In this document: positions 3,463 to 58,267 of the stretch, in pieces
Position numbering within the stretch: the stretch's first letter is position 1
How the letters are laid out: every line of letters begins with the position of its first letter
Assembly: GCA_965242695.1 (NCBI GenBank)
Contig: CBDESU010000001.1
Location: 224,001 to 288,000, forward strand
From: Cenarchaeum sp.
GTDB lineage: Archaea > Thermoproteota > Nitrososphaeria > Nitrososphaerales > Nitrosopumilaceae
Direction of reading: 5' to 3'
Length of the DNA stretch: 64,000 nt
The notes under the pieces: generated by a model
Seen by the model: the letters and a program-made list of their open reading frames with translations, nothing else
Database searches by the model: none
What the model was told of the DNA's origin: nothing
Program-made: the position numbers and the translations under genes

Positions 3463-6381
3463 ATGCAGGGGGGAGGTGCGGGGCGCAGTGGCAGCGAAGT
3501 GGTTCTGCTGGCCCCGCCGCTCGAGGGCGAGGACGATCGCAGATCGTACGTCCGCAACTGGCTGGCGAGCATCGGCGTGCCGGCATCCTCGATGCGCATC
3601 GAGTATCCTACGGCCGAGGGGCCCATAGGCCTCTACCTTACGAACCGCCGCGTGGCCATCGAGGTGAAAAAGGGCGGCCGCCTGGAAAAGGGGCCGTACG
3701 CAGACGGGTCGGGCTCTGGGGGCGGAGATTCCGCGTTCGGTCAGCTAGAGCGGCGCCTCAAGGCAGAGCGGGCGCGCGAGCGCCTGTACCTCGAGGGCGG
3801 CATAAGGGACAGGAAGTGGATTGGGGCCGTCACCGACTGCCGCGTGTGGTACATGTGGGAGTGGGATCCAGATCCGGAGGCGGGCGCGCGGGATGGCCGG
3901 GGGCCCAGAGATGCCGCGGTCCGAATCAACGCATGGCACGGCCGGACGCTCGACAAGGGCGGCACCGGGCGCCTTGCGCACCTGCTCGCCCGCGGCACGG
4001 TGGGAAAGGAGTGGGCAACGGCGGACATGTCGGACATGTTTCGGCCGCTCAGGTCGGGACTGGACAGGGCGTACGCGAAGGGGAGGGGGCTGCGCGAGGT
4101 GCGCGTGCAGAGGGGGCTGTGGCTGGAGCAGCTGCGCGCGGGCGGCAGCGCGCCCGAGTCGGACGAGGACGACCTGTTCGTGCTGCATACGATGCTCATA
4201 CTCGCATCCCGCATGATATCGGGCCAGGGCGATGCAAGGCGGGGGTTTGCGGGATGGGTACCGGACGAGCTTGTCGTGGAGATGAAGGGAGTGATCGACG
4301 AGTACAACTGGTCCCAGCAGACGGGCGACGTCCTGAGGGCGCTGTACCGCCGCTACGTCCCCGCGCGGCATCGGCTGCGGTACGGCGAGTACTATACGCC
4401 GGACTGGCTCGCAGAGATCATGTGCCGGACCATAATAGACGACCGGTTCATAGGCGAGCAGGTGCGCCGCTTCCAGTCGGGGCGCGCGGTACAGGGGGTG
4501 TTGGATCCCGCGTGCGGCTCGGGCACGTTCCTGTACCACGCGGTTCGCCGCATACTAGAGTCCGAGCCGGTCAAGAAGTCGTACCTTGCGCGCCCCGCCG
4601 CGTCGCGCCTTGCATGCCTGATGGTGCGCGGAATGGACATACACCCCGTTGCCGTCGAGATGGCGCGCGCCAATGTCAGGCGCCTTCTTCCGGATGCGGG
4701 GGACGAGGATGTGATGATCTACCAGGGCGACTCGCTGCTCATGCCGAGGCCCGAGGCCACCGTGCTGGGCGCCGGCGGGAGCGATCTGCCGCTGACCTCG
4801 CCGCAGGGCCGCCATTTTGTCCTGCCGGGCTGGTTTATCGTGTCCGACTCTGACCTGTCTAGGTTCGTAAGGTCGGCCGTGGACGACGTGGACATGCCGG
4901 AGGGGCTCGGCAGCGGGCTGGACGGGTATGATCGCGGGCAGCTTGCAGAGTCGCACGAGCGCCTTCGCAGGATAGCCCGCGAAGAGGGGAACGGGGTGTG
5001 GCTGTGGTACATCCTGAACCATGCCGGCTCCATGAGGCTGCGCGGCACGATCGGGCGGATTGTGGCAAACCCGCCGTGGGTGACGTTCGACAAGATACGC
5101 GAGGCGCGCCAAAAGTCCGAGGTGAAGAGGATGGCCAAGGAGCGCGGCCTCTGGGTGGGCGGGTCTAGCACAAAGTTCGACCTTGCGGCGCTGTTCGTCG
5201 ATCGGTGCGCCGAGCTGTACCTTGGGGAGGGCGGGGCGTCGGGGTGGGTCCTGCCGCAGTCCGCACTGCGGGGAGAGACGTGGTCGGGGCTGCGCGGCGA
5301 GGTCGGCGGGGGGATGACGGCCGTGTGGGACGTCGGCAACTTGGCGTTCCAGTCGCACGCATGCGTAATGTTCTTTGGCGCCGATGCGGGGCGGAAAGTC
5401 CTGGCCAGGCGCGGCGGGTGGGCTGCGCCGCGCGACGGCGACACGTGGGCCGAGGCGGAGCAGCGGACCTGCTGGGTAGAGGAGCGGCGCAGGGCCGCGC
5501 CCGAGGAGAGGTCTGCGTGGGCGGATGCCGCGCCGGGCGCCGGCCGCAGGGGGTCGCCGGTCCGGCGCGGCGCCTCCATGATCCCGCAGTGTCTGGTATG
5601 GGCCCGCACCGTGCGCATCGGCAGGGGAGGTGCCGAGGCGTACGTCGAGACCCGGGAGTCCAGGTGGCCCCCGTGGAGCCAGATAGGCCCCCTCAGGGGG
5701 CGCGTTCCTGCGCACTGGGTGCGCGACTGCATATCGTCGGCCGACCTTGCCCCGTTTGCGGCGCCGACCCGCACGAAGTGCATCGTGCCGGTCGACGGGG
5801 ACGGGTGGGACGGCGCGCGGTCAAAAAACCGGTTCTGGCGGATGGCATGCGACCAGTACGCGGCCCACCGCGGCGCCGGGCAGGGCACGCCAAAGACCTT
5901 GGAGGACAGGATAAACTACAACAACGGCATATTCGACCAGCTGGGCAGGGGCGGCCACGCCGTCATATACAACAAGTCGGGCGCCTCGCTGAGGGCATGC
6001 GCGATACGGGGCCCTGATATAGTCCACGACACGCTGCACTACGTCAGGTGCGCGGGCCGGCGCGAGGCGATGTTCCTTGCGGGGATGCTCAACTCTGATG
6101 CGATGCAGCCTGCGTTCCGCGCCGCGCGCCGGAACACGCGCGACTTTGCCGAGCACATATGGCGGGCCGTGCCGGTCCCGAGGTACGACCGCCGCGACCG
6201 CGCGCACTCGCGGCTGGCCGACGCGTCGGGCAGGGCCGCGGCCGCCGCGGCGTCCGCGCTGGGCGGCGGAATGGCGCCGCGGGCGGCGGCCAGGGCGGCA
6301 AGGGATGCGCTGGCCGCGGGAGGACTGGGCGAGCGCATCGACGAGCTGTGCCGCGAGGTGCTGCCGGGCCACGCCGAGTAG
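3463..6381 (+). CDS. Type IIG-like restriction-modification protein / N6-adenine methyltransferase, paralog 1 (nuclease motif degenerate)
   Basis: GEYYTPDWLA, VLDPACGSGTFL (motif I), IVANPPW (motif IV); N-terminal GPIGLYL...IEVK where paralogs have GPIDLYL...LEIK; start could be GTG 3451. Confidence 0.85.
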   Translation: MQGGGAGRSGSEVVLLAPPLEGEDDRRSYVRNWLASIGVPASSMRIEYPTAEGPIGLYLTNRRVAIEVKKGGRLEKGPYADGSGSGGGDSAFGQLERRLKAERARERLYLEGGIRDRKWIGAVTDCRVWYMWEWDPDPEAGARDGRGPRDAAVRINAWHGRTLDKGGTGRLAHLLARGTVGKEWATADMSDMFRPLRSGLDRAYAKGRGLREVRVQRGLWLEQLRAGGSAPESDEDDLFVLHTMLILASRMISGQGDARRGFAGWVPDELVVEMKGVIDEYNWSQQTGDVLRALYRRYVPARHRLRYGEYYTPDWLAEIMCRTIIDDRFIGEQVRRFQSGRAVQGVLDPACGSGTFLYHAVRRILESEPVKKSYLARPAASRLACLMVRGMDIHPVAVEMARANVRRLLPDAGDEDVMIYQGDSLLMPRPEATVLGAGGSDLPLTSPQGRHFVLPGWFIVSDSDLSRFVRSAVDDVDMPEGLGSGLDGYDRGQLAESHERLRRIAREEGNGVWLWYILNHAGSMRLRGTIGRIVANPPWVTFDKIREARQKSEVKRMAKERGLWVGGSSTKFDLAALFVDRCAELYLGEGGASGWVLPQSALRGETWSGLRGEVGGGMTAVWDVGNLAFQSHACVMFFGADAGRKVLARRGGWAAPRDGDTWAEAEQRTCWVEERRRAAPEERSAWADAAPGAGRRGSPVRRGASMIPQCLVWARTVRIGRGGAEAYVETRESRWPPWSQIGPLRGRVPAHWVRDCISSADLAPFAAPTRTKCIVPVDGDGWDGARSKNRFWRMACDQYAAHRGAGQGTPKTLEDRINYNNGIFDQLGRGGHAVIYNKSGASLRACAIRGPDIVHDTLHYVRCAGRREAMFLAGMLNSDAMQPAFRAARRNTRDFAEHIWRAVPVPRYDRRDRAHSRLADASGRAAAAAASALGGGMAPRAAARAARDALAAGGLGERIDELCREVLPGHAE

Positions 6382-6472
6382 CGCGCGCGGGGCGCAGGGG
6401 GCCGCGTGAGGGTCGGTCGGCCCTCTCCCGCCCACAATTCGACTAAAATACGCCTCCTCCTGCAGGGGGCGC

Positions 6473-6537
6473 GGATGCCGATGATGAGCGGAAAAGCCAT
6501 CGGAGCGGTGACGACGATTATGAGTTATGAGGCATCC
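6473..6537 (+). ncRNA. Box C/D guide sRNA (predicted to guide Cm34 of a CAU-anticodon tRNA)
   Basis: Terminal stem GGATGCC/GGCATCC; C box ATGATGA 6481-6487; 13-nt guide; D' CGGA; C' GTGACGA; 12-nt guide CGATTATGAGTT; D box ATGA; TATA-like CTAAAATA about 25 nt upstream. Confidence 0.75.
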
Positions 6538-6681
6538 TCTGCGACGGCCCGGCCCATACGGCGCGGCCCCTGCCGGTCGGCGCAGGACGCCGCATGCGGG
6601 CGCACGTGGGAAGCCGTGGCCGGATGCCCCTGCCGCGGCCGTTCGGCCCGGCATCGCGCGGCCTCGGCACATGCCGGCAGT

Positions 6682-9600
6682 CTACGCCGCCGCGTGCCGC
6701 GGCAGCACCCTCCTGCACGCCTCGTCGACCATGCCGCCCAGGCCGCCCTCGGCAATGGCCTCGCAGATCCTCCTCTTGTTCGCCGCCGGCGTCGACGACG
6801 GCCGGAATGCCCTGGCCGAGGCCGCCTCGGCCTTGGCGGCCAGGTCCCGCAGCCGCCGGTGGTCCGCATCCGACCCGTCGTACCGCGGCACGGGCACGGC
6901 GTACCACGGATGCGCCGCAAAGTCCATGCCGTTCCTGCGCGCGGCCAGAAAGGCGGGGCGCATGCATCCTGCGTTGAGGATCGCCTCGACGAACAGCGCC
7001 TCGCTCTTTGATGCGCACCGCATGTAGTACACCGTCGCATGCGCGACAAGCCCGCTGTCGGGCAGCCTGGCGGCGCTGAGGACTACGCCGGCCTTGTTGT
7101 GCACGACATAGTGGCCCGCCGGCCCGCCGCGACGCGGCTGCCTCAGGAGCATTCCGTTGAAGTCTAGCCTATCCTCGAGCGTCTTTGGGTTTCTCTTGCC
7201 GATCCCGCAGTGCGCCGAGTACTGGTCCCGCGCGGCCTTCCAGAACGCATTCGACTCCCTCCGCGCGTCCCATCGGCCGTCCTCGGCGAGGGGAAGTATG
7301 CACTCTGCGTGCGTCATGACGGCGTACGGCAGCACGTCCGACGCCGTAACGCACCTGCGTACCCAGGAGGATGGCACGGTGCCGGACATCGTGCCCAGGC
7401 TCTTCCACGGCTCGTGGATCGACGGCTTTGTCGTGACGGACACGATCCCCCTCCCCGCGCCCCGCTCCACGCTGGCCGCGTACACTAGGCAGTGGGGAAC
7501 GATCGTGGCGCCCTGCGTGGCTAGCGCGTTCCCGCCGCCGTCAAGATATGCGGACGGCTCGTCGGGGGGCCGGCCGGCCGCATCCCTCCGCTCCCACGCG
7601 GTCTTTTCCCGAACCGCCGCCCACGCGTCGTTCTCGGCAGGCCTCGGGGTGCCGGCCCTGCGGCGCAGGGCCCTCTGGCCGGCGCGGCCGCCAAAGAACA
7701 TGGCACACGACTTTGTCGGGAATGCCAGGCTGCCGATGTCCCACACGCCGCCGGCCCTACTTCCCATCTTTGCCGCAAAGTTGGCCCAGTTGCCCCCTCC
7801 CGCCATGGCGCCGTGCGGCAGTATCCACCCCGACCTGCCCCTCTTGGCGCCCATGTACAGCGCCGTGCACCTGTCGACGAACAGCGCGGCCATGTCGAAC
7901 TTTGCGTTCTTGCCGCCGACCCACAGCCCGAGCTCGCCTGCCATCTTCCTCACCTCCGCCTTGCGGTCGGGATCCTGGATCTTGTCGTACGAGACCCACG
8001 GGGGGTTGGCCACTATCCTGCCTATCGTCCCGCGCAGCCTCATCGGGCCGGCCTGGTTGAGTATGTACCACAGCCACACGCCGTTGGACTCTGCCCTGAC
8101 TATCCGGCGCAGCTGGCCGTGGGCCTCTTGCAGCGCCTCTTCGTCGTAGCCGTCGGCGCCGGCACCTAGCGACGGCGGCAGGTCCGCATCGTCCGCGGCC
8201 GACTCTACAAACCTGGAAATATCCCTGCTGCCGGAAACCGCAAACCATCCGGGCAGTATCAGGTGCCTCCCGCCGGGCGAGACGAGGGGCAGGTCGGCCC
8301 CGCCGTTGCCGTACAGGGACGCCTCGGGCCTGGGAGTGAGGAGGGAGTCGCCCTGGTAGATTGCAATGTCGACTTCGCTGGCGCCCGGCAGGAGCCTGCA
8401 CATGTTGGCCCTGGCCATCTCGACGGCGACGGGGTGTATGTCTATCCCCCTGACCATGCTGCACGCGAGCCGCGCCGCATCGTCGCCCCTCAGGTACGCC
8501 TTCTTGACCGGATCCGACCCGACGATTCTCTTTGCGGCGTGGTACAGGAACGTGCCCGACCCGCACGCGGGATCCAGCACGCCCTGCACCCGCTGGCCCG
8601 CCCCGAAGCGGCGCACCTGTTCGGCGATAAACCCGTCGTCGATCACCCTGGCGCACACGATCTCGGCGAGCCAGTCCGGCGTGTAGTACTCGCCGTACAG
8701 CCTGCGGTGCTCGGCCGGCACAAAGTGCCTGTATATGGCGCGCAGGATGTCGCCCGTATGCTGCGACCAGTTGTACCCGCGTATGATGTCCTCTAGCATG
8801 CGCACCTCTGCGTCCCCGACCCACTGGACAAACCCGTACCGCGGGTCCGCGCCGCCGGGCCGCGACGAGATCATCCTGGCGATCAGGATGAGCATCGAGT
8901 GGAGGACAAACATCGTGTCCCTGTCCCCGCCGGGCGCGTTGCCCCCTCCCCTCAGCTGCTCTAGCCACAGCCCCTGCTGCGTTTGGACGTCGCGCAGCGC
9001 CCTGCGCCTTTCAAACGACCTTTCCAGCGCGGCCCTTGCATCCTCGAAGACATGCGACATGTCGGCCGACGCCCACTCCTTGCCGACCGTAGCGCGGTCG
9101 AGCAGGACGGCGAGCCGCCCGATGTTGGCGCGGGTCAGCTCGGTCCCGTGCCACGCGCCTATGCGGGACGGCGCGTCCCCTGCATCCGACGGCATCGGTT
9201 GCCACTCCCACGCGTACCACACGCGGCCGTCCGTGGCCATGCCGATCCAGCTCTTCTCGCGCACGCCGTCCTCCTCAAGGTGCAGCCGCTCCCTTGCGCG
9301 CTCGGCCGCGACGTACCGCGAGACCTGCTCGAACGCCGATTCGGTCCCGATTGATCCCGTGCCGTCGGCATATGGGCCGCCCGACAGGCGCCCGCCCTGC
9401 TTTATCTCCAGGATGATACGCCTGTTGGTGAGGTACAGGTCGATCGGCCCCGCATCCGTCTGGTGCTCGGTACGGATGGCCGCGGCAGGCACGCCGACGG
9501 CGACGAGCCACTCGCTGATGTACGCCCTGCGGTCGGCCTCCTTTTTGGACGGTGGGGCGAGCAGTGTGCTCTCTGCGTCGGCGAGGCGCCCGCCCTTTCC

Positions 9601-29024: not shown

Positions 29025-29113
29025 TGGGCCGAGTGAGATTCGAACTCACGGCCTTTCGATCTCCGAGGAGGTCTTATCAGTCGAACGCTCCAGCCAAGCT
29101 GAGCTACCGGCCC
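29025..29113 (-). tRNA. tRNA-Ile(GAU) with 14-nt intron at 37/38
   Basis: GGGCCGG/TCGGCCC acceptor, TTCGA-CTGATA[AGACCTCCTCGGAG]A-TCGAA anticodon arm with BHB helix CTGA/TCGG, GTTCGAAT T-loop. Confidence 0.93.
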
Positions 29114-51298: not shown

Positions 51299-52225
51299 GT
51301 GGGGCCTGCGACGAGTCCGCTGTCCGGCAAGGAGCTTGGGGAGATCGTGAAGGAATGCGGCAGCATGCCGGCTGTCGCCCGCCGGCTAGAAGAGGAGGTG
51401 CGCACTCGTCCCGGCGACGTCCCCCTCCTGTACCTTGCCGGCGTCGCGAACATGGAGGCCGGCGACCTCGAGAAGGCGTTGCGACTGCTGCGCGAGTCGC
51501 TGCGCGTGTTCCCGCGGCTGGCCCCGGCGCATGCGACCATGGGCAGGATATACGCAAAAATGGGGCGCCACAAGAAGGCCGCGGCATGCTGCAAGAGGGC
51601 GATGCGGCTCGACCGCGGCTCGGCCGATCCGCTTGTGGCGTATGGCCGGGTGAAGATCGACGCTGGCAAGGGCAAGGCGGCACTGCGCCTGTTCCGCGCC
51701 GCGGCGCGGCGCGAGCCCGACAACGGCGAGGCGTACATTGGCATGGGGGAAGCGTACATGCTGATTGATCGCCCGTCCAGAGCCGCGGCCTCCTTCCGGA
51801 GGGCCTCTAGAATCGACCCCGACTCCGTTGATGCCACCACCTCCCTTGGCAAGGCCCTGGTGTCGTCCGGGCGGCTCGAAAAGGCCATTGCCGCATTTGA
51901 CAGGGTCATTGCAATGGATCCCGACTCGCCGCTGGGGCACATACTGCGCGCCACGACTCTGACCGAGATGGGGCGGTACGACGAGGCCGAGGCGTCGTAC
52001 GATGCGGGCATCGCCGCAAACCCCGACGCCTCGGTGTCGTGGGCCATGCGGGCCGACAACCACGGCCTCGCCGGCAGGGCGGAGGACGGCAGGAGGTGCG
52101 TCGAGAAGGCCCTTGCCCTGGGCCGGGCCGGCAAGGGGCGCGGCGACGGCGACAAGTTCGACGGCCTTGTAGCGGATGCGATGGAGTCGATCGCCGAGGC
52201 CGAAAAGGGCGGCGATGCGCGTTGA
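51299..52225 (+). CDS. TPR protein
   Basis: Consecutive 34-aa TPR-like units; start inferred. Confidence 0.8.
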   Translation: MGPATSPLSGKELGEIVKECGSMPAVARRLEEEVRTRPGDVPLLYLAGVANMEAGDLEKALRLLRESLRVFPRLAPAHATMGRIYAKMGRHKKAAACCKRAMRLDRGSADPLVAYGRVKIDAGKGKAALRLFRAAARREPDNGEAYIGMGEAYMLIDRPSRAAASFRRASRIDPDSVDATTSLGKALVSSGRLEKAIAAFDRVIAMDPDSPLGHILRATTLTEMGRYDEAEASYDAGIAANPDASVSWAMRADNHGLAGRAEDGRRCVEKALALGRAGKGRGDGDKFDGLVADAMESIAEAEKGGDAR

Positions 52226-53151
52226 AGGTAGACACGATCCACAACGCAGACTGCCTCGACTGCCTGTCGAATCTCCCCGGTGAGTCGATGGACCTGATTG
52301 TCACGTCTCCGCCCTATGCAGACAACCGCAAGGGCGCCTACCGCGGCGTTCCCATAGACGGGTACGTGGACTGGTTTCTTCCCATTTCGCGCGAGCTGTA
52401 CAGGGTGCTGCGCCGCGACGGCTCCTTCGTACTGAACATAAAAGAAAGGGTCGTCAACGGGGAACGCGCCACCTATGTCATAGATCTGATTCTTGAGATG
52501 CGGAAACAGGGATGGGTGTGGACGGAAGAGTACCTATGGCACAAGAAAAACTGCTACCCGGGCAAGTGGCCCAACCGCTTCAGGGATGCGTGGGAGCGCT
52601 GCCTTCACTTTACAAAGCAGAAGGATTTTCGCATGTTTCAGTACGATGCGGTGGTGCCCGTGGGAGACGGGCGTGACGAGCGGCAGGACCACCCCGCGGC
52701 TGCAGGCGTGGACAGGAATGCCGCCAAAAATGAGGGCGGCGCTGGCGGGGATGCCTCTGGTTGGGCGGGACGCGACATGGCGTACGCGACGAACGTGATC
52801 CACATGGCCACAGAGTGCTCGAATGTAAACCACAGCGCGGCGTTTCCGGCTCCACTCCCCGCATGGTTCATGAAACTGTTTGGCGCCAAGGGTGACATTG
52901 TACTGGATCCGTTCATGGGGAGTGGGTCTACGGCCATTGCCGCAATCGATCTGGGGCTCCACTATGTGGGCATAGAGATCGAACCCAAGTATTGCAAGGC
53001 GGCGCTTTCTAGGATAAAAGCCCACAAAGCCAAAGCTCCAATTATCTTCGACCACGTCCGTCGTATAGGGGTTCTACTAAAGTTGACAAGAATTGACCAG
53101 GTGTCAAGATCTCTTCACCCCTGTGGTGGTATAGCAGGGACGACAGAGTAG
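52222..53151 (+). CDS. Site-specific N4/N6 DNA methyltransferase (beta class); 3' end altered by IS630
   Basis: DLIVTSPPY, HSAAFP, VLDPFMGSGST; last ~28 codons lie inside the IS. Confidence 0.9.
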   Translation: MKVDTIHNADCLDCLSNLPGESMDLIVTSPPYADNRKGAYRGVPIDGYVDWFLPISRELYRVLRRDGSFVLNIKERVVNGERATYVIDLILEMRKQGWVWTEEYLWHKKNCYPGKWPNRFRDAWERCLHFTKQKDFRMFQYDAVVPVGDGRDERQDHPAAAGVDRNAAKNEGGAGGDASGWAGRDMAYATNVIHMATECSNVNHSAAFPAPLPAWFMKLFGAKGDIVLDPFMGSGSTAIAAIDLGLHYVGIEIEPKYCKAALSRIKAHKAKAPIIFDHVRRIGVLLKLTRIDQVSRSLHPCGGIAGTTE

Positions 53152-54603
53152 GGCATGGGGCGAAAGGGATCGATTCCAGTGGGCAAGGGCTTCATGCCTG
53201 GCACGAGCGCCCACAAGCTCAAGCGCCTTGCCAACAAGGAGATGGACGCGCTGACGGCCAAGAGGTACATGGCCGCGTACCACCGCAAGAAGGGCAGGTC
53301 GTTCAACGAGATAGCCGGGATGGTCCTTGCATCGTACGACGCGGTCAGGGACTGGCTGGTGAAGATGCACAAGGGGGGCCTGAAGGCGGCCCCGCGGGGC
53401 AAGAGCCCCGGCAGGCGCCGATCAATTCCGCTCGAGATCCGCTGGGAGTTGATCATGGACGTCTTCATGGGGCCGCAGGCGGCCGGCTACAAGGCCAACG
53501 TGTGGACGTTCAAGCTCCTGCACGACCATCTTGAGAAAAAGTACAAGGTGAAGATAGCATACTCGACGGCCGCAAAGAACTTCAAGGAGATGGGCATACG
53601 GCTCAAGGTGCCCCGCCCCGCACACCCAAAGGCGGCGAGCCTCGAGGAGCGGCTCGCCTTCCAGGCGGAGGCGCGCGCCAGGATCAAGGAGGCCGCCGCA
53701 GCCGGCTACCATACGGTCTTCATCGACGAGGGCCATGCGCAGGGCTACAAGAACGGGCGCGAGACGGCGGGGCTGAGGGGGGTCGAGATCGTGCGCACGT
53801 CGAGCGTCGGGCGCGCACGCCTGAGCTTCTTCGTAGCCGTCGGCTACGGGTGGGTCTTCGTCATGGAGTGCCCCGGCCGGGCCAACAGCGAGGCGTACAC
53901 GAGGTTCCTTGACAGGGTCAACGCCCTAGTCGGCAAGATTCAGACCATAGACGACAACGCCGGATACCACACCTCGGACAGGTCCAGCGACCACATCCGG
54001 GACAACGCGGACCGCCTGAGGCGCATACCCACGCTTCCGTACACGCCCAACGACAACGTCGCCGAGCCGCAGATCCGCGGCATAAAGACCGCCATGTCCA
54101 ACGTAGGGCTCGACAGCGTCGGGGCCATAAGCGGCGAGCTCGGGTGGTGCTTTGAGAGCGACCTAGTCGTCCCGGTCGAGTTCTACGACTATGCGACTAC
54201 GGTCAACGCGCCGCAGATCAGCCCCCGCAAGGCGGCGGGGATCAAGAAAAGGCTCGGGCCGGGAGAGCACTTTGTGTACGTGCAGAGGAGAATGCCGGAA
54301 GAGGAGATCACCCTGCCGACCATCGAAGAGATTAAAGCGAAGGAGGACAAGATACTCCCTCCGGAAAAGCGCGCAGAGCTGCCACTTGTGCTGACCAACT
54401 CGAACATTCCCGCCAACTTTCTTGCGAGGCTTCCCCAGATATTGCTTGAGGAATAGAGTGGCATGCCCCGCTGCGATAAATGTTGCACTTGTGCCGCGCT
54501 GCGGAATAACAATTTACGATACAATTGTTTTGCGTAACTATTTTGTCGACCTTAATTGCATGCAATCTTCAATACGTTTTCGTGAACTCAGATAGAACCC
54601 CTA
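53066..54603 (+). mobile_element. IS630-family insertion sequence
   Basis: Imperfect terminal inverted repeats TAGGGGTTCTA....AGTT.AC; flanking TA duplication at 53064-53065 and 54604-54605. Confidence 0.88.
53155..54456 (+). CDS. IS630-family transposase
   Basis: N-terminal HTH/wHTH, FIDE, DDNAGYH, PYTPNDNVAE (DDE triad). Confidence 0.9.
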   Translation: MGRKGSIPVGKGFMPGTSAHKLKRLANKEMDALTAKRYMAAYHRKKGRSFNEIAGMVLASYDAVRDWLVKMHKGGLKAAPRGKSPGRRRSIPLEIRWELIMDVFMGPQAAGYKANVWTFKLLHDHLEKKYKVKIAYSTAAKNFKEMGIRLKVPRPAHPKAASLEERLAFQAEARARIKEAAAAGYHTVFIDEGHAQGYKNGRETAGLRGVEIVRTSSVGRARLSFFVAVGYGWVFVMECPGRANSEAYTRFLDRVNALVGKIQTIDDNAGYHTSDRSSDHIRDNADRLRRIPTLPYTPNDNVAEPQIRGIKTAMSNVGLDSVGAISGELGWCFESDLVVPVEFYDYATTVNAPQISPRKAAGIKKRLGPGEHFVYVQRRMPEEEITLPTIEEIKAKEDKILPPEKRAELPLVLTNSNIPANFLARLPQILLEE

Positions 54604-55581
54604 TAAACGAGCTGGATGACATGAATACCTCCTGACAAATTTTGGCGGCGGGGCTGTCGTAACCACTTCAGAAACCGCGATAGTCGCAAAAAAGGGCGGG
54701 CGGACGGGCGGATGAAAACGTGCCGATCGTGCTGCGGCTTGTCGCATGCCGGACATGCGTGACACGCGCTCAAGAGCACGTTCGGTGAGGATCGCATCGA
54801 GGATCGCACCGGTGCCACCCAACCCGACGTTCTTGTATACTTCGCACAGATCCTCGTAGGATCCCGGCCCCCCGAGCATGTCCCAAAGCGGCTTGCCTAT
54901 CAGTGCGTGGTTTTTCACGTCCAGGTACCTGCACCCGATCGAATACGCATATTCGTCTGCACCGTACGGGTTGTACGCCATTCCGAAATACGTCTGGGTT
55001 TTAGGAAACGCGTTTTTCCTGATACAATGTACGGTCAGATGTTTGCGTGTTGTCGTGAGGCATTGATCCTTGTTAGGAGACGGCGACTTGAACTCTATGT
55101 ATATTTCTTTGCTCGTGCTGTCGCTTATGTACAGGTCCGACCTCACGTCCCTGCTCACCTTGCTACTGCCGTCGCCGCGCACAAGCTTGACTAGTCGCTG
55201 GACCTCGTGGCGGTAATTCTGGAATCGCTTGCCGATTCCCACTTCGTGCACTATGTTGTCAACTTCTGCTAGCGTGTCGGCCGGAACGTAGCTCGCCAGA
55301 TCATGCTGGCGTTCGACAGTGCGGAAGCTTTGACGTGCGAGGGCCTCTGCGCAGTGCTCATAGGTGCTACCCAGGCCGCTCGACAGTGATCTCTCGAAGT
55401 TGGACCCCCTGCTGGCGCTCTTTGGCAGCAGCGCCCTGTGGAACGGCTTGTGGCCGCCTTTCGCCTCTTCCCCCGTGGCGGCAGTTTTCAAATACTGTGC
55501 CTTCTTCTTGCGCGCGAGATCTTCGATCCACTTGCGCAGGTATTCCTCGAGCTCGCGACTTGTATCGCTAGACAGCGCCAT
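54601..55581 (-). CDS. Type II restriction endonuclease, TdeIII/MjaII-like
   Basis: KPFHRALL, ERSLSSGLG, SDLYI...IEFKSPSPNK, MAYNPYG; overlaps upstream MTase. Confidence 0.8.
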   Translation of the reverse strand: MALSSDTSRELEEYLRKWIEDLARKKKAQYLKTAATGEEAKGGHKPFHRALLPKSASRGSNFERSLSSGLGSTYEHCAEALARQSFRTVERQHDLASYVPADTLAEVDNIVHEVGIGKRFQNYRHEVQRLVKLVRGDGSSKVSRDVRSDLYISDSTSKEIYIEFKSPSPNKDQCLTTTRKHLTVHCIRKNAFPKTQTYFGMAYNPYGADEYAYSIGCRYLDVKNHALIGKPLWDMLGGPGSYEDLCEVYKNVGLGGTGAILDAILTERALERVSRMSGMRQAAARSARFHPPVRPPFFATIAVSEVVTTAPPPKFVRRYSCHPARL

Positions 55582-56782
55582 TGGGACCACACACCAGCAT
55601 GTTTTCGTCAAACCCTGTAGCCCTTCTTCCCGATCTGCGATTGACCGTCCTGCGAAGGCGCTTGATTATCGACAAGCCGGCATCCTGCACTATGTCGTCA
55701 TATATGCCAAGCTTGTCGTTGACTATGACTACGGCGACGCCATTTTTGCCCATGGTGGATTCTGATACGTTGCGGAGTGTCTTGGCTACAGCGTGCTTGT
55801 ATTTTGCCACTGCGGCTTTGCTGGTGCCGTTGGCCCTGCGGCCTACCTCCTGATCGCTTTTATCCTCGATGCCAAGCAGTTCGTACGCATATCTGTGCTG
55901 TTCATGGTAGTCGATCAATCCTATGTATGGGGGAGACGTTATGACGTGGGTTATACCAGTGCGCGAAAAGTCGAATGTCCTTGAATCGCCATGGAGTGCC
56001 TTGGTATGGACAGACTGCCTTATTTTTTGAAACTCGGCAAGCCTATTGACGACGTCGTCGCAGTACCTCTTGATAAAGACCATGGAATTTTTTGTTGGAT
56101 GGCATGTCCTGCTGTGCTTGAGACAGTAGTAGTCTGTCGGGTAGGGCTTTTTTGGATAATCAACTTCGTAATGTGCTATCATGCGCGACGATCTGGCCGA
56201 GCGTGTAAGTATAATTTTGAGTACGTCTTGGTACCTGTGCTTTGGTATGAGCTCCTTGAAGACAAGGAGTGTATGCAGTGCGTCGGGGTGGAACCATCTG
56301 TTCAGATATGCCGAATCTGTACGCAGCTTGCGAGGCTTGCCAACAAAGCTGACTGGATCGGTCTTCGTTGCGCAGCTTAGAGTTTCAGACAGTATGGCAT
56401 TGACCTCTTTTCTGAGGGCGGCGATGTCATATTTTGCGGTCTTTACATTGCACAACATGACATTAAACTTGCTAATGTCAATACCGATTGAGGGTATTCC
56501 GCGCGTGTTTGCTTGGATGAGGGTTGTACCGGATCCCATGAACGGATCACACACCCTCTTTGCACCCTTGAGATCATGATCCAAGAAATAGTCTACTAGC
56601 TGCGGCACAAACTTGCCAAAGTACGGGTGTATGCCATGAACGTGCTTGGTGCGCATTTTTTGCGGCATTTCTCTCTCTGTCCAACTCAACTGCTTGACTA
56701 GCTTTGCGGGCGGCGGCGACACGTCACAGCGCCTCCCATCCCGTTGCGGTCCTGGCACTGTTTGGATTGCACCTGATGTCAT
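55568..56782 (-). CDS. N4-cytosine-type DNA methyltransferase (alpha class), likely cognate of the endonuclease
   Basis: HGIHPYFGKFVPQLV, DPFMGSGTT, VITSPPY; visibly lower GC than flanks. Confidence 0.88.
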   Translation of the reverse strand: MTSGAIQTVPGPQRDGRRCDVSPPPAKLVKQLSWTEREMPQKMRTKHVHGIHPYFGKFVPQLVDYFLDHDLKGAKRVCDPFMGSGTTLIQANTRGIPSIGIDISKFNVMLCNVKTAKYDIAALRKEVNAILSETLSCATKTDPVSFVGKPRKLRTDSAYLNRWFHPDALHTLLVFKELIPKHRYQDVLKIILTRSARSSRMIAHYEVDYPKKPYPTDYYCLKHSRTCHPTKNSMVFIKRYCDDVVNRLAEFQKIRQSVHTKALHGDSRTFDFSRTGITHVITSPPYIGLIDYHEQHRYAYELLGIEDKSDQEVGRRANGTSKAAVAKYKHAVAKTLRNVSESTMGKNGVAVVIVNDKLGIYDDIVQDAGLSIIKRLRRTVNRRSGRRATGFDENMLVCGPNGAV

Positions 56783-57166
56783 GGGGGCCTACCATGTGGC
56801 CGATGAGGGGTGCCGAGCGTGGCTTTGCGGGTCGGGGGTGACTGGGGCCAGGGGTCGACCTGATCAGAACCGCAACGCTATGAGACGGCATGCGTGACCC
56901 TGCATGCCTGAATCCTACCGCAACTGCCGGTGCCAACGGGCGGAGGCGTCATTTTGGATTTAATAAGAGTTTTTTGATCTGACGATCGCCAGCATGTGGG
57001 CCGACACGCAGTCCGTCGTATGCGGTGGCGGCCTTCCATCATTGGCACCGTGGTCGGGGCCTGGATGCGCCCTGTTGCCAGTGTTGTGGTCTGTCGACCG
57101 GCACTTTGCCTTGTCAGCACTGGCGCTGACGTGTCGTATCCACACTGTTCAGAGTGGACATCAGGG

Positions 57167-57276
57167 CTGGCAGTGGGTGGTGCATGATTGCGCCTCGTCT
57201 GCACCTGCGCGCGACCGAGTCGCCGACGACCACGTTCCTGGCAGTGGGTGGTGCATGATTGCGCCTCGTCTGCACC
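57167..57276. repeat. Two identical 39-bp hairpin-containing direct repeats with a 32-bp spacer
   Basis: CTGGCAGTGGGTGGTGCATGATTGCGCCTCGTCTGCACC at 57167 and 57238. Confidence 0.85.
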
Positions 57277-57295
57277 AGGCACAACCCTGCCGCCG

Positions 57296-58267
57296 TCAGG
57301 TCTGCAGTGCCACTGCGGTTAGCAACCCTGCAACGAGCAACGCGCCGGATATGCGCGCAAACAGCAGCGTCGCCGACATTGCCCCGACAAGCCTGCCCCA
57401 GTCGGCAATGCCTGCCGGGGCGGCACTCCTACCTTCGCCATCCGCCGCCCCTGACGCGACGCGGCCTCCATCTCTGACGCTCGCCCGCAGCCTTGTACCC
57501 GCCGCGATCGCTAGCGGCATGCCTCCCGCGGCCGCCAGCGACCAGACGGGAAGGATGCCCGCCCACACCCCTGCCGCCAGGGCCGACATGGCCGCGACAG
57601 GAAACGCCCAGAACAGCGGCGCCGCGCGGGCGGGGCCGCCTGCCGCGATCACCAGCGTGCGCCGCCCGCCGGACGCATCCGCCTCGTGGTCGGGAAACGA
57701 TGCGACGAACAGGACGGCCGACGACAGCGCGCCGACGGCCGCGCCTGCAAGGGCCGCCTCGGCCGACAGCGCCCCCTCCTGTATGTACGCGGCCCCGACG
57801 ACGATCATGGCCCCCTTTGCGGCGACGAATACCTCTGCGAGCCCCGAGTCGACGATCCTCGTAGAGTAGAACCAGATCGAGGCCGCGGCAAACCCGAGTA
57901 TTGCGGCGATGATCCACCCGTGCGCGATCGCAAAGTACGCGCCGGCCGCGCACCCTGCCAGCAGCAGCGCGATGCCGGCGCGCCGCACCCGGCCTGCGCC
58001 GATCAGGCCGTCGGCTATGACGCCGGTCCCGCCGCTCATCGGAGTCCTCCTTGCGCGCGCGTCGATCCCCCTCTTGTGGTCTGCATAGTCGTTGAGCAGG
58101 TCGACGCTCGCGTGCAGCGCGAGCACGCCGGCCATGGTGAGGGCGGCGGATGCCGCGTCGATCTGCGCGCCCCTCCACGCCGCAGCGGCCAGCCCCGCAG
58201 AGACGGCCACGACCGAGGCGAGGAGGAACCTTGCGCGCACGGCGCGCAGCCACGAAGAGATCATCAT
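57296..58267 (-). CDS. UbiA/MenA-family prenyltransferase
   Basis: LLNDYADHKRGID, SGG.G, FPDHEADASGGRRTL, multiple TM helices. Confidence 0.9.
   Translation of the reverse strand: MMISSWLRAVRARFLLASVVAVSAGLAAAAWRGAQIDAASAALTMAGVLALHASVDLLNDYADHKRGIDARARRTPMSGGTGVIADGLIGAGRVRRAGIALLLAGCAAGAYFAIAHGWIIAAILGFAAASIWFYSTRIVDSGLAEVFVAAKGAMIVVGAAYIQEGALSAEAALAGAAVGALSSAVLFVASFPDHEADASGGRRTLVIAAGGPARAAPLFWAFPVAAMSALAAGVWAGILPVWSLAAAGGMPLAIAAGTRLRASVRDGGRVASGAADGEGRSAAPAGIADWGRLVGAMSATLLFARISGALLVAGLLTAVALQT

Follow-up and report, generated by a model that had tools for sequence, protein, structure and literature searches.

A predicted dual-guide box C/D sRNA conserved in the Nitrososphaeria, with complementarity to CAU tRNAs at C34 and to domain V of the LSU rRNA

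Overview

The stretch of Cenarchaeum sp. DNA analysed here (the window, 64,000 nucleotides) carries at 6473-6537, on the forward strand, what is in all likelihood a dual-guide box C/D sRNA with a promoter of its own, predicted to guide Cm34 formation in CAU tRNAs, of which tRNA-Met is the conserved one, and a second methylation in domain V of the LSU rRNA. Its anatomy, its conservation, the covariation of its terminal stem, the complementarity of both guides to these RNAs and one covariation between a guide and its target are direct observations. Transcription, RNP assembly and the methylations themselves we infer from them: transcribed from its own promoter, the sRNA would be bound by L7Ae, Nop5 and fibrillarin and would direct two 2'-O-methylations. 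The D guide would pair with nt 31-40 of the anticodon arm of a CAU tRNA, with C34 at the N+5 position, and so yield Cm34 on elongator tRNA-Met, a tRNA-Ile2-like tRNA being a predicted second substrate in this genome and in ~44% of the family (Nitrosopumilaceae). The D' guide would pair with CGG[C]UUUUCC of LSU domain V and direct methylation of a cytidine next to the peptidyl-transferase centre that corresponds to E. coli C2510.

The genome under study (G000; other G numbers denote relatives and f numbers families) comprises 3.89 Mb in two contigs with 67-68% G+C. The genes of the core proteins fibrillarin (282 bits) and Nop5 (211 bits) adjoin each other on contig C1, and the closest named relatives of this fibrillarin are from Nitrosopumilus, Nitrosopumilaceae or Thaumarchaeota. 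The stretch is also present in DNA sequencing runs, including sponge metagenomes.

Anatomy of the sRNA

The elements of the sRNA and the element upstream of it, all on the + strand of the window, are as follows.

6443..6450, +, TATA-like A/T-rich promoter box CTAAAATA, 22 nt 5' of the sRNA stem
6473-6537, +, whole box C/D sRNA with C, D', C' and D boxes and a 7-bp terminal stem
6473-6479, +, 5' strand of the terminal stem, GGAUGCC, pairing with 6531-6537
6481-6487, +, C box AUGAUGA, with one G between stem and box and the k-turn core (G/A)AUGA at 6480-6484
6488-6500, +, D' guide of 13 nt, with the conserved core GGAAAAGCC at 6490-6498, complementary to LSU rRNA GGCUUUUCC
6501-6504, +, D' box, variant CGGA, followed by a GCG spacer and then the C' box
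6508-6514, +, C' box, variant GUGACGA (NUGAUGA in relatives)
6515-6526, +, D guide CGAUUAUGAGUU of 12 nt, with the conserved core GAUUAUGAGU at 6516-6525, complementary to nt 31-40 of CAU tRNAs
6527-6530, +, D box, variant AUGA, directly 5' of the 3' stem strand
6531-6537, +, 3' strand of the terminal stem, GGCAUCC, pairing with 6473-6479

The architecture claimed in a preliminary description of this DNA (boxes in the order C-D'-C'-D, guides of 12-13 nt and a closing stem of 7 bp) is borne out exactly by the sequence at 6473-6537, and the variant D and D' boxes that it named are indeed AUGA and CGGA. Membership in the C/D class is indicated by a canonical C box, a D box of the form NUGA with the G and A of the sheared pairs, the 7-bp stem, the presence of both internal boxes (C' and D') with guides of 13 and 12 nt, and guide pairing of 10-12 bp between the D guide and CAU tRNAs and of 9-10 bp between the D' guide and LSU domain V. 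The first base of the D box departs from the C/D consensus CUGA. The fifth base of the D guide, counted from the D box, is G at 6522.

Conservation across the family and the class

A BLAST search with a 121-nt query found homologs in 15 of the 24 other family genomes, with matches that stop at the borders of the sRNA, and a second copy within G000 at C1:524768-524834. An alignment of 17 sequences (A1) shows an invariant k-turn core, (G/A)AUGA, and no variation in either guide core or in the GA of the D and D' boxes, which answers in the affirmative an earlier proposed test, whether the boxes are conserved in relatives. Within the C box, alignment positions A10, U11, G12 and A13 are the same in 17/17 sequences, its last three positions being variable. 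Of the cells in the terminal stem 97.5% are paired, and four of its seven pairs show compensatory (two-sided) changes. None of 500 shuffles attains its covariation score, and slid registers fall far short of it as well.

The covariance model R1, built from alignment A1, matches 24/24 family genomes, 22 of them at no less than 63 bits (>=63), G010 at 37 and G005 at 25, and 54/54 family genomes in a class-wide sample; sixteen of the matching genomes are training data of the model and match by construction. Outside the family, R1 matches 8/10 genomes of f21, 7/8 of f22, 11/17 of f23, 4/9 of f18, 1/1 of f25, 1/1 of f15 and 1/14 of f19, and it is unmatched in f9, f20, f24 and f26 (6 genomes together). 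Among 15 distant class-level homologs that were retrieved, the D' core GGAAGAGCC is found in 14 and GAUUAUGAG precedes a NUGA or NCGA D box in 13. The D guide core GAUUAUGAGU is exact in 21/24 family sRNA sequences, and the D' guide core is the most conserved part of the sRNA across the class. Since R1 finds the RNA across the family and in several further families of the class, and four of the seven stem pairs are compensated, 6473-6537 is, by this comparative evidence, a genuine dual-guide C/D sRNA conserved class-wide and not a product of chance.

The unusual boxes were examined in the same homologs. The D box reads NUGA or NCGA in 46/46 homologs, and none of the 24 family sequences and none of the 15 class-level homologs has C at its first position; the canonical CUGA is found in four of seven other-family homologs of the order (G040, G027, G038 and G035). 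The D' box CGGA is confined to both copies in G000 and to its closest relative G004, most relatives having CUGA, and in these two genomes only it co-occurs with UGACGA in the C' box, so that the normal U.U pair becomes G-C. The non-canonical D' and C' boxes of G000 therefore appear as a compensated double change.

The A/T-rich box upstream is conserved as well. Among 23 family homologs, an exact copy of CTAAAATA or one with a single mismatch ends 20-24 nt 5' of the stem in 18, a two-mismatch variant (CTATTATA or CTATAACA) lies at 20-22 nt in four more, and in G017 the box fits only at 14 nt from the stem. Both copies in G000 retain it despite their differing flanks and a genome of 68% G+C. The box resembles an archaeal TATA box and may well act as the promoter.

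Several side observations concern related loci. A third, weak R1 match in G000 (C2:143606-143676, minus strand, 29.9 bits) is possibly a further C/D sRNA. The homologs L117 (G040), L118 (G036), L119 (G027) and L123 (G031), from four other families of the order, keep the D' guide and have a different D guide; by eye, G040 and G036 seem to have D guides that would match CAA and CUG anticodon loops, which would amount to a retargeting of the wobble guide. At loci L108, L112, L101 and L102 (G011, G008, G006 and G018, respectively), GGCUUUUCC or a near copy of it, that is, the LSU target sequence complementary to the D' guide, stands directly 3' of the sRNA; it is maybe a T-rich terminator only, or it may pair with the guide in the precursor.

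Comparison with Rfam

At gathering thresholds, a search of the whole window against Rfam returned two tRNAs only and no C/D family. A permissive scan of 6350-6700 (E<=10) gave 14 matches, of which 11 are to archaeal C/D families on the + strand within 6476-6534, and none of the 14 attains its gathering score. The best is sR41 (RF01126; 31.1 bits, E 1.2e-5, gathering score 54), and sR-tMet (RF02163) scores 17.1 bits (E 2, gathering score 50). The window RNA is thus not a member of the Rfam families sR-tMet and sR41. The preliminary description had suggested a thaumarchaeal counterpart of sR-tMet; this holds in the sense that the RNA is a C/D sRNA aimed at C34 of CAU tRNAs, and fails in the sense of membership in that Rfam family.

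Gene copies and neighbourhood

Two convergent ORFs of ~1000 aa, 300 nt apart, flank the window copy of the sRNA; both carry N6_Mtase, MmeI and Eco57I-type methylase domains and represent type IIG-like restriction-modification (R-M) genes. In small-genome relatives the sRNA is located between the aIF5A gene and a diphthamide-synthase-like gene (PF01902), and in other families of the class the conserved start of the diphthamide-synthase-like gene is likewise found 3' of the sRNA. The second copy in G000 (C1:524768-524834) retains this PF01902 neighbour. Only ~110 nt are common to the two copies, a segment that starts with the promoter box and runs through the 3' stem; they differ by one base, located in that stem strand, their boxes and guides being identical; the stem is a perfect 7 bp in the window copy and contains one G.U pair in the syntenic copy. 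G004 has a single copy, in a context without informative Pfam matches. Judging from this arrangement, the window copy is the derived one, a duplicate inserted between the two R-M genes. The placement "inside the R-M array" given earlier is accurate as to the two flanking genes, but the setting appears incidental, because the window copy duplicates a gene whose ancestral place adjoins the diphthamide-synthase-like gene, and nothing evident ties the R-M context to the function of the sRNA.

Two further features of the surroundings were noted. Positions 52001-58000 of the window have a G+C fraction of 0.56-0.62, compared with ~0.70 elsewhere in the window, and may mark a foreign island, and C2:129635-131533 of G000 consists of ~14 tandem copies of a unit of ~130-160 nt.

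Predicted targets of the D guide

The complement of the 10-nt D core occurs four times in the 3.89-Mb genome, twice as the antisense strands of the two sRNA copies and twice in the anticodon arms of elongator-type CAU tRNAs. The tRNA genes that bear on the target assignment are the following.

C2:1621103-1621176, CAU tRNA gene (a), intron-less, acceptor GGGCCCG, arm ACCGA-CUCAUAA-UCGGU, likely tRNA-Ile2
C2:1323717-1323808, CAU tRNA gene (b), acceptor GCCGGGG, arm CCAG^A-CUCAUAA-UCUGG, 18-nt intron between nt 30/31, likely elongator tRNA-Met
C2:98993-99082, CAU tRNA gene (c), A1-U72, anticodon stem closed by three G-C pairs, likely initiator tRNA-Met
29025..29113 of the window, -, tRNA-Ile(GAU) gene, 14-nt intron, nearly complementary to the D guide, not a predicted substrate

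Three G-C pairs closing the anticodon stem are described as a hallmark of initiator tRNAs. The other two genes were told apart by comparison with the tRNA-Ile(GAU) of G000, to which gene (a) is identical at 57 of 75 positions and gene (b) at 49 of 75; gene (a) shares with it the acceptor stem (6/7), the D arm and the 5' strand of the T stem. Because gene (a) is the more similar one, we read it, with good confidence, as tRNA-Ile2 and gene (b) as elongator tRNA-Met.

The preliminary description had matched the D guide to an anticodon loop with CAU, with the N+5 rule falling on C34, and had proposed a search of the CAU tRNA genes for the complement, which was found in genes (a) and (b). With gene (a) the D guide forms 12/12 pairs (11 Watson-Crick and one G.U, dG -16.3), the fifth pair from the D box involving C34. 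Pairing with tRNA-Met is weaker: 11 pairs with the spliced form of (b) (10 Watson-Crick and a G.U, dG -14.0) and 10 Watson-Crick pairs with its precursor (dG -12.9). The spliced tRNA-Ile(GAU) pairs at 11/12 positions (dG -12.3), and its sole mismatch, G x G, is at position 34, just as had been stated. The N+5 partner of the D guide is C34 in (a), (b) and (c); the initiator tRNA (c) was rejected as a substrate, as it forms only 9 pairs including two G.U (dG -8.8).

Comparison of orthologs separates the two remaining candidates. In orthologs of gene (b), ACUCAUAAUCUGG is kept in 29/30 genomes, including ten other families of the order, and the intron (13-42 nt, with no C/D boxes) is always inserted after CCAG, that is, after nt 30. 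Orthologs of gene (a) are present in 24/24 family genomes, and their pair 31-39 is A-U in 11/26 and G-C in 15/26; the A31-U39 form is found in 11/25 family genomes (~44%), G000 included. The D core stays constant while gene (a) switches between A31-U39 and G31-C39, which breaks the duplex at position 39, and this argues that (a) is not the conserved target. Most likely, then, the conserved substrate of the D guide across the family and the class would be C34 of the intron-containing elongator tRNA-Met. Since the A-U form of (a) presents the same 10-nt target as (b), the Ile2-like tRNA is predicted as a second substrate, and tRNA-Ile2 is possibly one in the genus Cenarchaeum. The base beside the D box, compared by eye with tRNA nt 30 or the last intron base, gave mixed covariation and no pattern.

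The D-guide pairing is confined to the 3' exon of tRNA-Met (nt 31-40) and does not span the exon-intron junction, so that spliced and unspliced tRNA-Met could both be substrates. The earlier proposal of a CAU tRNA or pre-tRNA-Met target is accordingly kept in that the conserved target is an intron-containing elongator tRNA-Met, and modified in that the pairing involves only the 3' exon.

Some peculiarities of these and other tRNA genes deserve mention. The tRNA-Met-like gene (loci L064-L093) has its intron at the non-canonical position 30/31 in 30/30 genomes from 11 families, and in G028 it has an additional insertion in the T arm. The Ile2-like tRNA (a) and its orthologs have an unusual T loop, AUCGAAG, with A as the first base instead of UUCGAA, conserved in 26/26 genomes. 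The initiator-like tRNA(CAU) at C2:98993-99082 has an extra insertion in its 5' half, its Rfam match being limited to model positions 9-63, and lies ~570 bp from the TiaS gene (C2:99648-99995). Finally, G000 has four nearly identical tRNAs of 90-93 nt with a long variable arm (C2:62099-62191, C1:407285-407377, C1:407462-407554 and C2:1303052-1303141), which differ mainly in the anticodon (read as GAU, CAG, UAG and CAG, respectively); GAU on a Leu-type body would be unusual.

Predicted target of the D' guide

The D' guide had been predicted to target either the intron of the same pre-tRNA or rRNA, and the rRNA alternative is the one that stands, by way of a 9-nt core in LSU domain V. The full 13-mer target has no other exact copy in the G000 genome and was rejected, its three one-mismatch sites falling outside known RNAs. 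The pre-tRNA-Met intron was also rejected, as it offers no more than a partial match (7/8) in G000 and the intron sequences are unconserved.

The 9-nt D' core has two matches in the LSU rRNA of G000, at 576-584 and at 2609-2617, so the 9-mer alone is weak evidence. The first site would form the most stable duplex in G000 (9 Watson-Crick bp and further pairs at its flanks, dG -18.3), but it was rejected as a chance match: the region is variable, and none of the relatives examined has the sequence. The second site (C1:43018-43026) lies inside a block of 171 nt with 98-100% identity among family members, where 23/23 sequences read GGCUUUUCC in the context CGGCUUUUCC; in other families 11/11 read GGCUCUUCC in the context CGGCUCUUCC. 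The D' guide itself reads GGAAAAGCC in the family, GGAAGAGCC in G029, G035, G036, G027 and G040, and GAAGAGCC in G038. Guide and LSU site were both seen in 22 family and four other-family genomes, and all 26 are consistent with one another (26/26). The D' guide and its LSU target thus appear to have changed together, A-U in the family versus G-C outside it; the change is most simply a single event and counts as one piece of evidence. In G031 (f8) the D' guide is of the A type and the LSU is not assembled.

The N+5 partner of the D' guide is the bracketed C of CGG[C]UUUUCC, and the target strand carries residues of the peptidyl-transferase centre a few bases upstream. This cytidine aligns to position 2509 of the 2903-nt E. 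coli 23S gene feature, which we take to be C2510 if the usual 2904-nt numbering is one higher. In G000 the duplex comprises 9 bp and has A opposite C at N+2, where most relatives have G and therefore 10 bp. A human 28S modification, Cm4456, with the guide SNORD49, exists. By a numbering offset it may correspond to the predicted LSU site, and we take it as a lead only.

Alternative explanations

That the boxes are chance motifs in a G+C-rich intergenic region, with no RNA gene behind them, is scarcely credible: the non-canonical D and D' boxes and the uniformly sub-threshold Rfam scores would fit such a reading, but conservation stops exactly at the predicted RNA borders in genomes ranging from A/T-rich to 68% G+C, the stem changes are compensatory and both guide cores are conserved, so that the comparative data already contradict it. 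Doubts about the window copy in particular, or about one of its guides, carry more weight, and we consider both of the following quite improbable. The window copy could be an inert duplicate, with only the syntenic copy at C1:524768-524834 expressed and functional. It sits amid convergent type IIG-like R-M genes, the duplicated segment is only ~110 nt, the other copy holds the class-wide diphthamide-synthase-like neighbour, and G004 manages with one copy; yet the duplicated segment takes in the promoter box, neither the boxes nor the guides differ between the two copies, and it is the window copy that has the perfect stem, the syntenic one having a G.U. Similarly, the D' guide could be an orphan or a mere folding chaperone, its LSU complementarity not leading to methylation. 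Such a state would have precedent in the tRNA-targeting sRNAs of Pyrobaculum, whose second guide usually lacks a target according to a review, and would agree with the short G000 duplex and its mismatch at N+2; against it, no part of the RNA is better conserved across the class than the D' core, which has also changed in step with its LSU partner.

A different question is which tRNA matters most in this genus. The same sRNA may have tRNA-Ile2(CAU), alone or with tRNA-Met, as the relevant substrate of its D guide, which would place Cm34 on the very cytidine that TiaS converts; we regard this as rather unlikely, though less so than the other alternatives. The Ile2-like tRNA gives the best duplex in G000 (12/12), and the 5'-most guide C pairs with G41 of this tRNA and not with U41 of tRNA-Met. 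This extra C is found in G000, G004, G003, G022 and G023, four of which (4/5) have an A31-U39 Ile2-like tRNA, and it favours gene (a) in G000, G004, G003 and G022. TiaS is also encoded in G000. Against this stand the constancy of the guide core family-wide while the Ile2-like tRNA has A31-U39 in only 11 of 26 orthologs and G31-C39 in 15, and the expectation that agmatidine, once formed, should not pair with the guide G. Moreover, 2'-O-methylated agmatidine did not come up in the sources covered by a limited literature search. We keep elongator tRNA-Met as the conserved predicted substrate, with the Ile2-like tRNA as a possible second one.

tRNA-Ile2, TiaS and agmatidine

The preliminary description had pointed out that targeting of tRNA-Ile2 would intersect with agmatidinylation by TiaS, and the issue is real, as the best-pairing gene is Ile2-like and a TiaS gene is present (113 bits). 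If gene (a) is methylated, 2'-O-methylation and agmatidinylation meet on C34. A bolder version, which we find unlikely, would have the same guide RNP also methylate C34 of tRNA-Ile2 in this sponge-associated genus and in the ~44% of Nitrosopumilaceae with an A31-U39 tRNA-Ile2, so that methylation and TiaS agmatidinylation meet on one nucleotide; the result might be 2'-O-methyl-agmatidine, carrying both modifications, or else a competition between them by which AUA versus AUG decoding is tuned. A limited literature search found no account of how TiaS distinguishes tRNA-Ile2 from tRNA-Met.

Relation to known guide RNAs

Haloarchaea, Pyrococcus and humans are already known to use RNA guides for Cm34 of tRNA-Met. 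The haloarchaeal sR-tMet (RF02163) is a box C/D sRNA that guides Cm34 of elongator pre-tRNA-Met (Joardar et al. 2011, as described in citing papers), and a predicted tRNA-Met guide and the tDNAs of H. volcanii are listed in the supplements of PMC2584109. Like sR-tMet, the window RNA is a stand-alone C/D sRNA predicted to place C34 of elongator tRNA-Met at N+5, and its predicted target gene has an intron. Unlike sR-tMet, it would pair entirely in the 3' exon (nt 31-40, with the intron at 30/31), and its second guide has a predicted rRNA target. Whereas sR-tMet pairs with the intron-containing precursor, the pairing predicted here needs no intron (10 Watson-Crick bp in the tRNA-Met precursor and 11 bp in the spliced form). 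With sR41 it has in common the consensus UAUGAG two bases before the D box, in the same register; it differs in the rest of the guide sequence and in scoring 31.1 bits against a cut-off of 54.

In Pyrococcus, tRNA-Met is among the targets of four wobble-position guides, documented or predicted according to a review; they are of one kind with the D guide here, and sR41 may be the one for tRNA-Met. The human SNORD97 and SCARNA97 are box C/D guides for Cm34 of elongator tRNA-Met(CAU), which protects this tRNA from angiogenin cleavage (Vitali and Kiss 2019, PMC6601510). The window RNA, as a predicted C/D guide for tRNA-Met Cm34, resembles them in kind; the human guides are eukaryotic, intron-encoded and work as two cooperating RNAs. 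In archaeal pre-tRNA-Trp, the intron itself is the C/D guide, for Cm34 and Um39. The predicted system shares with it an RNA-guided Cm34 on an intron-containing archaeal tRNA, but a gene apart from the tRNA encodes its guide, and the intron of tRNA-Met (13-42 nt) is free of boxes. Cm34 has also been reported in the initiator tRNA of two euryarchaea. Unlike the Pyrobaculum sRNAs mentioned above, the window RNA couples a tRNA guide to a conserved rRNA guide. A limited literature search found no description of thaumarchaeal C/D sRNAs.

Significance

If the predicted function is true, the ammonia-oxidising Nitrososphaeria would be the third archaeal lineage with RNA-guided Cm34 on tRNA-Met, after the haloarchaea and the Thermococcales, and, humans also using such a guide, a member in this class would strengthen the case for an ancient guide-target pair. 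In genomes with an A31-U39 tRNA-Ile2, the guide cannot separate tRNA-Met from tRNA-Ile2 by sequence, and these organisms offer a natural test of how 2'-O-methylation and agmatidine are kept apart. For cultivated Nitrosopumilus, two testable predictions follow: tRNA-Met should carry Cm34, and the LSU rRNA should carry a Cm next to the peptidyl-transferase centre.
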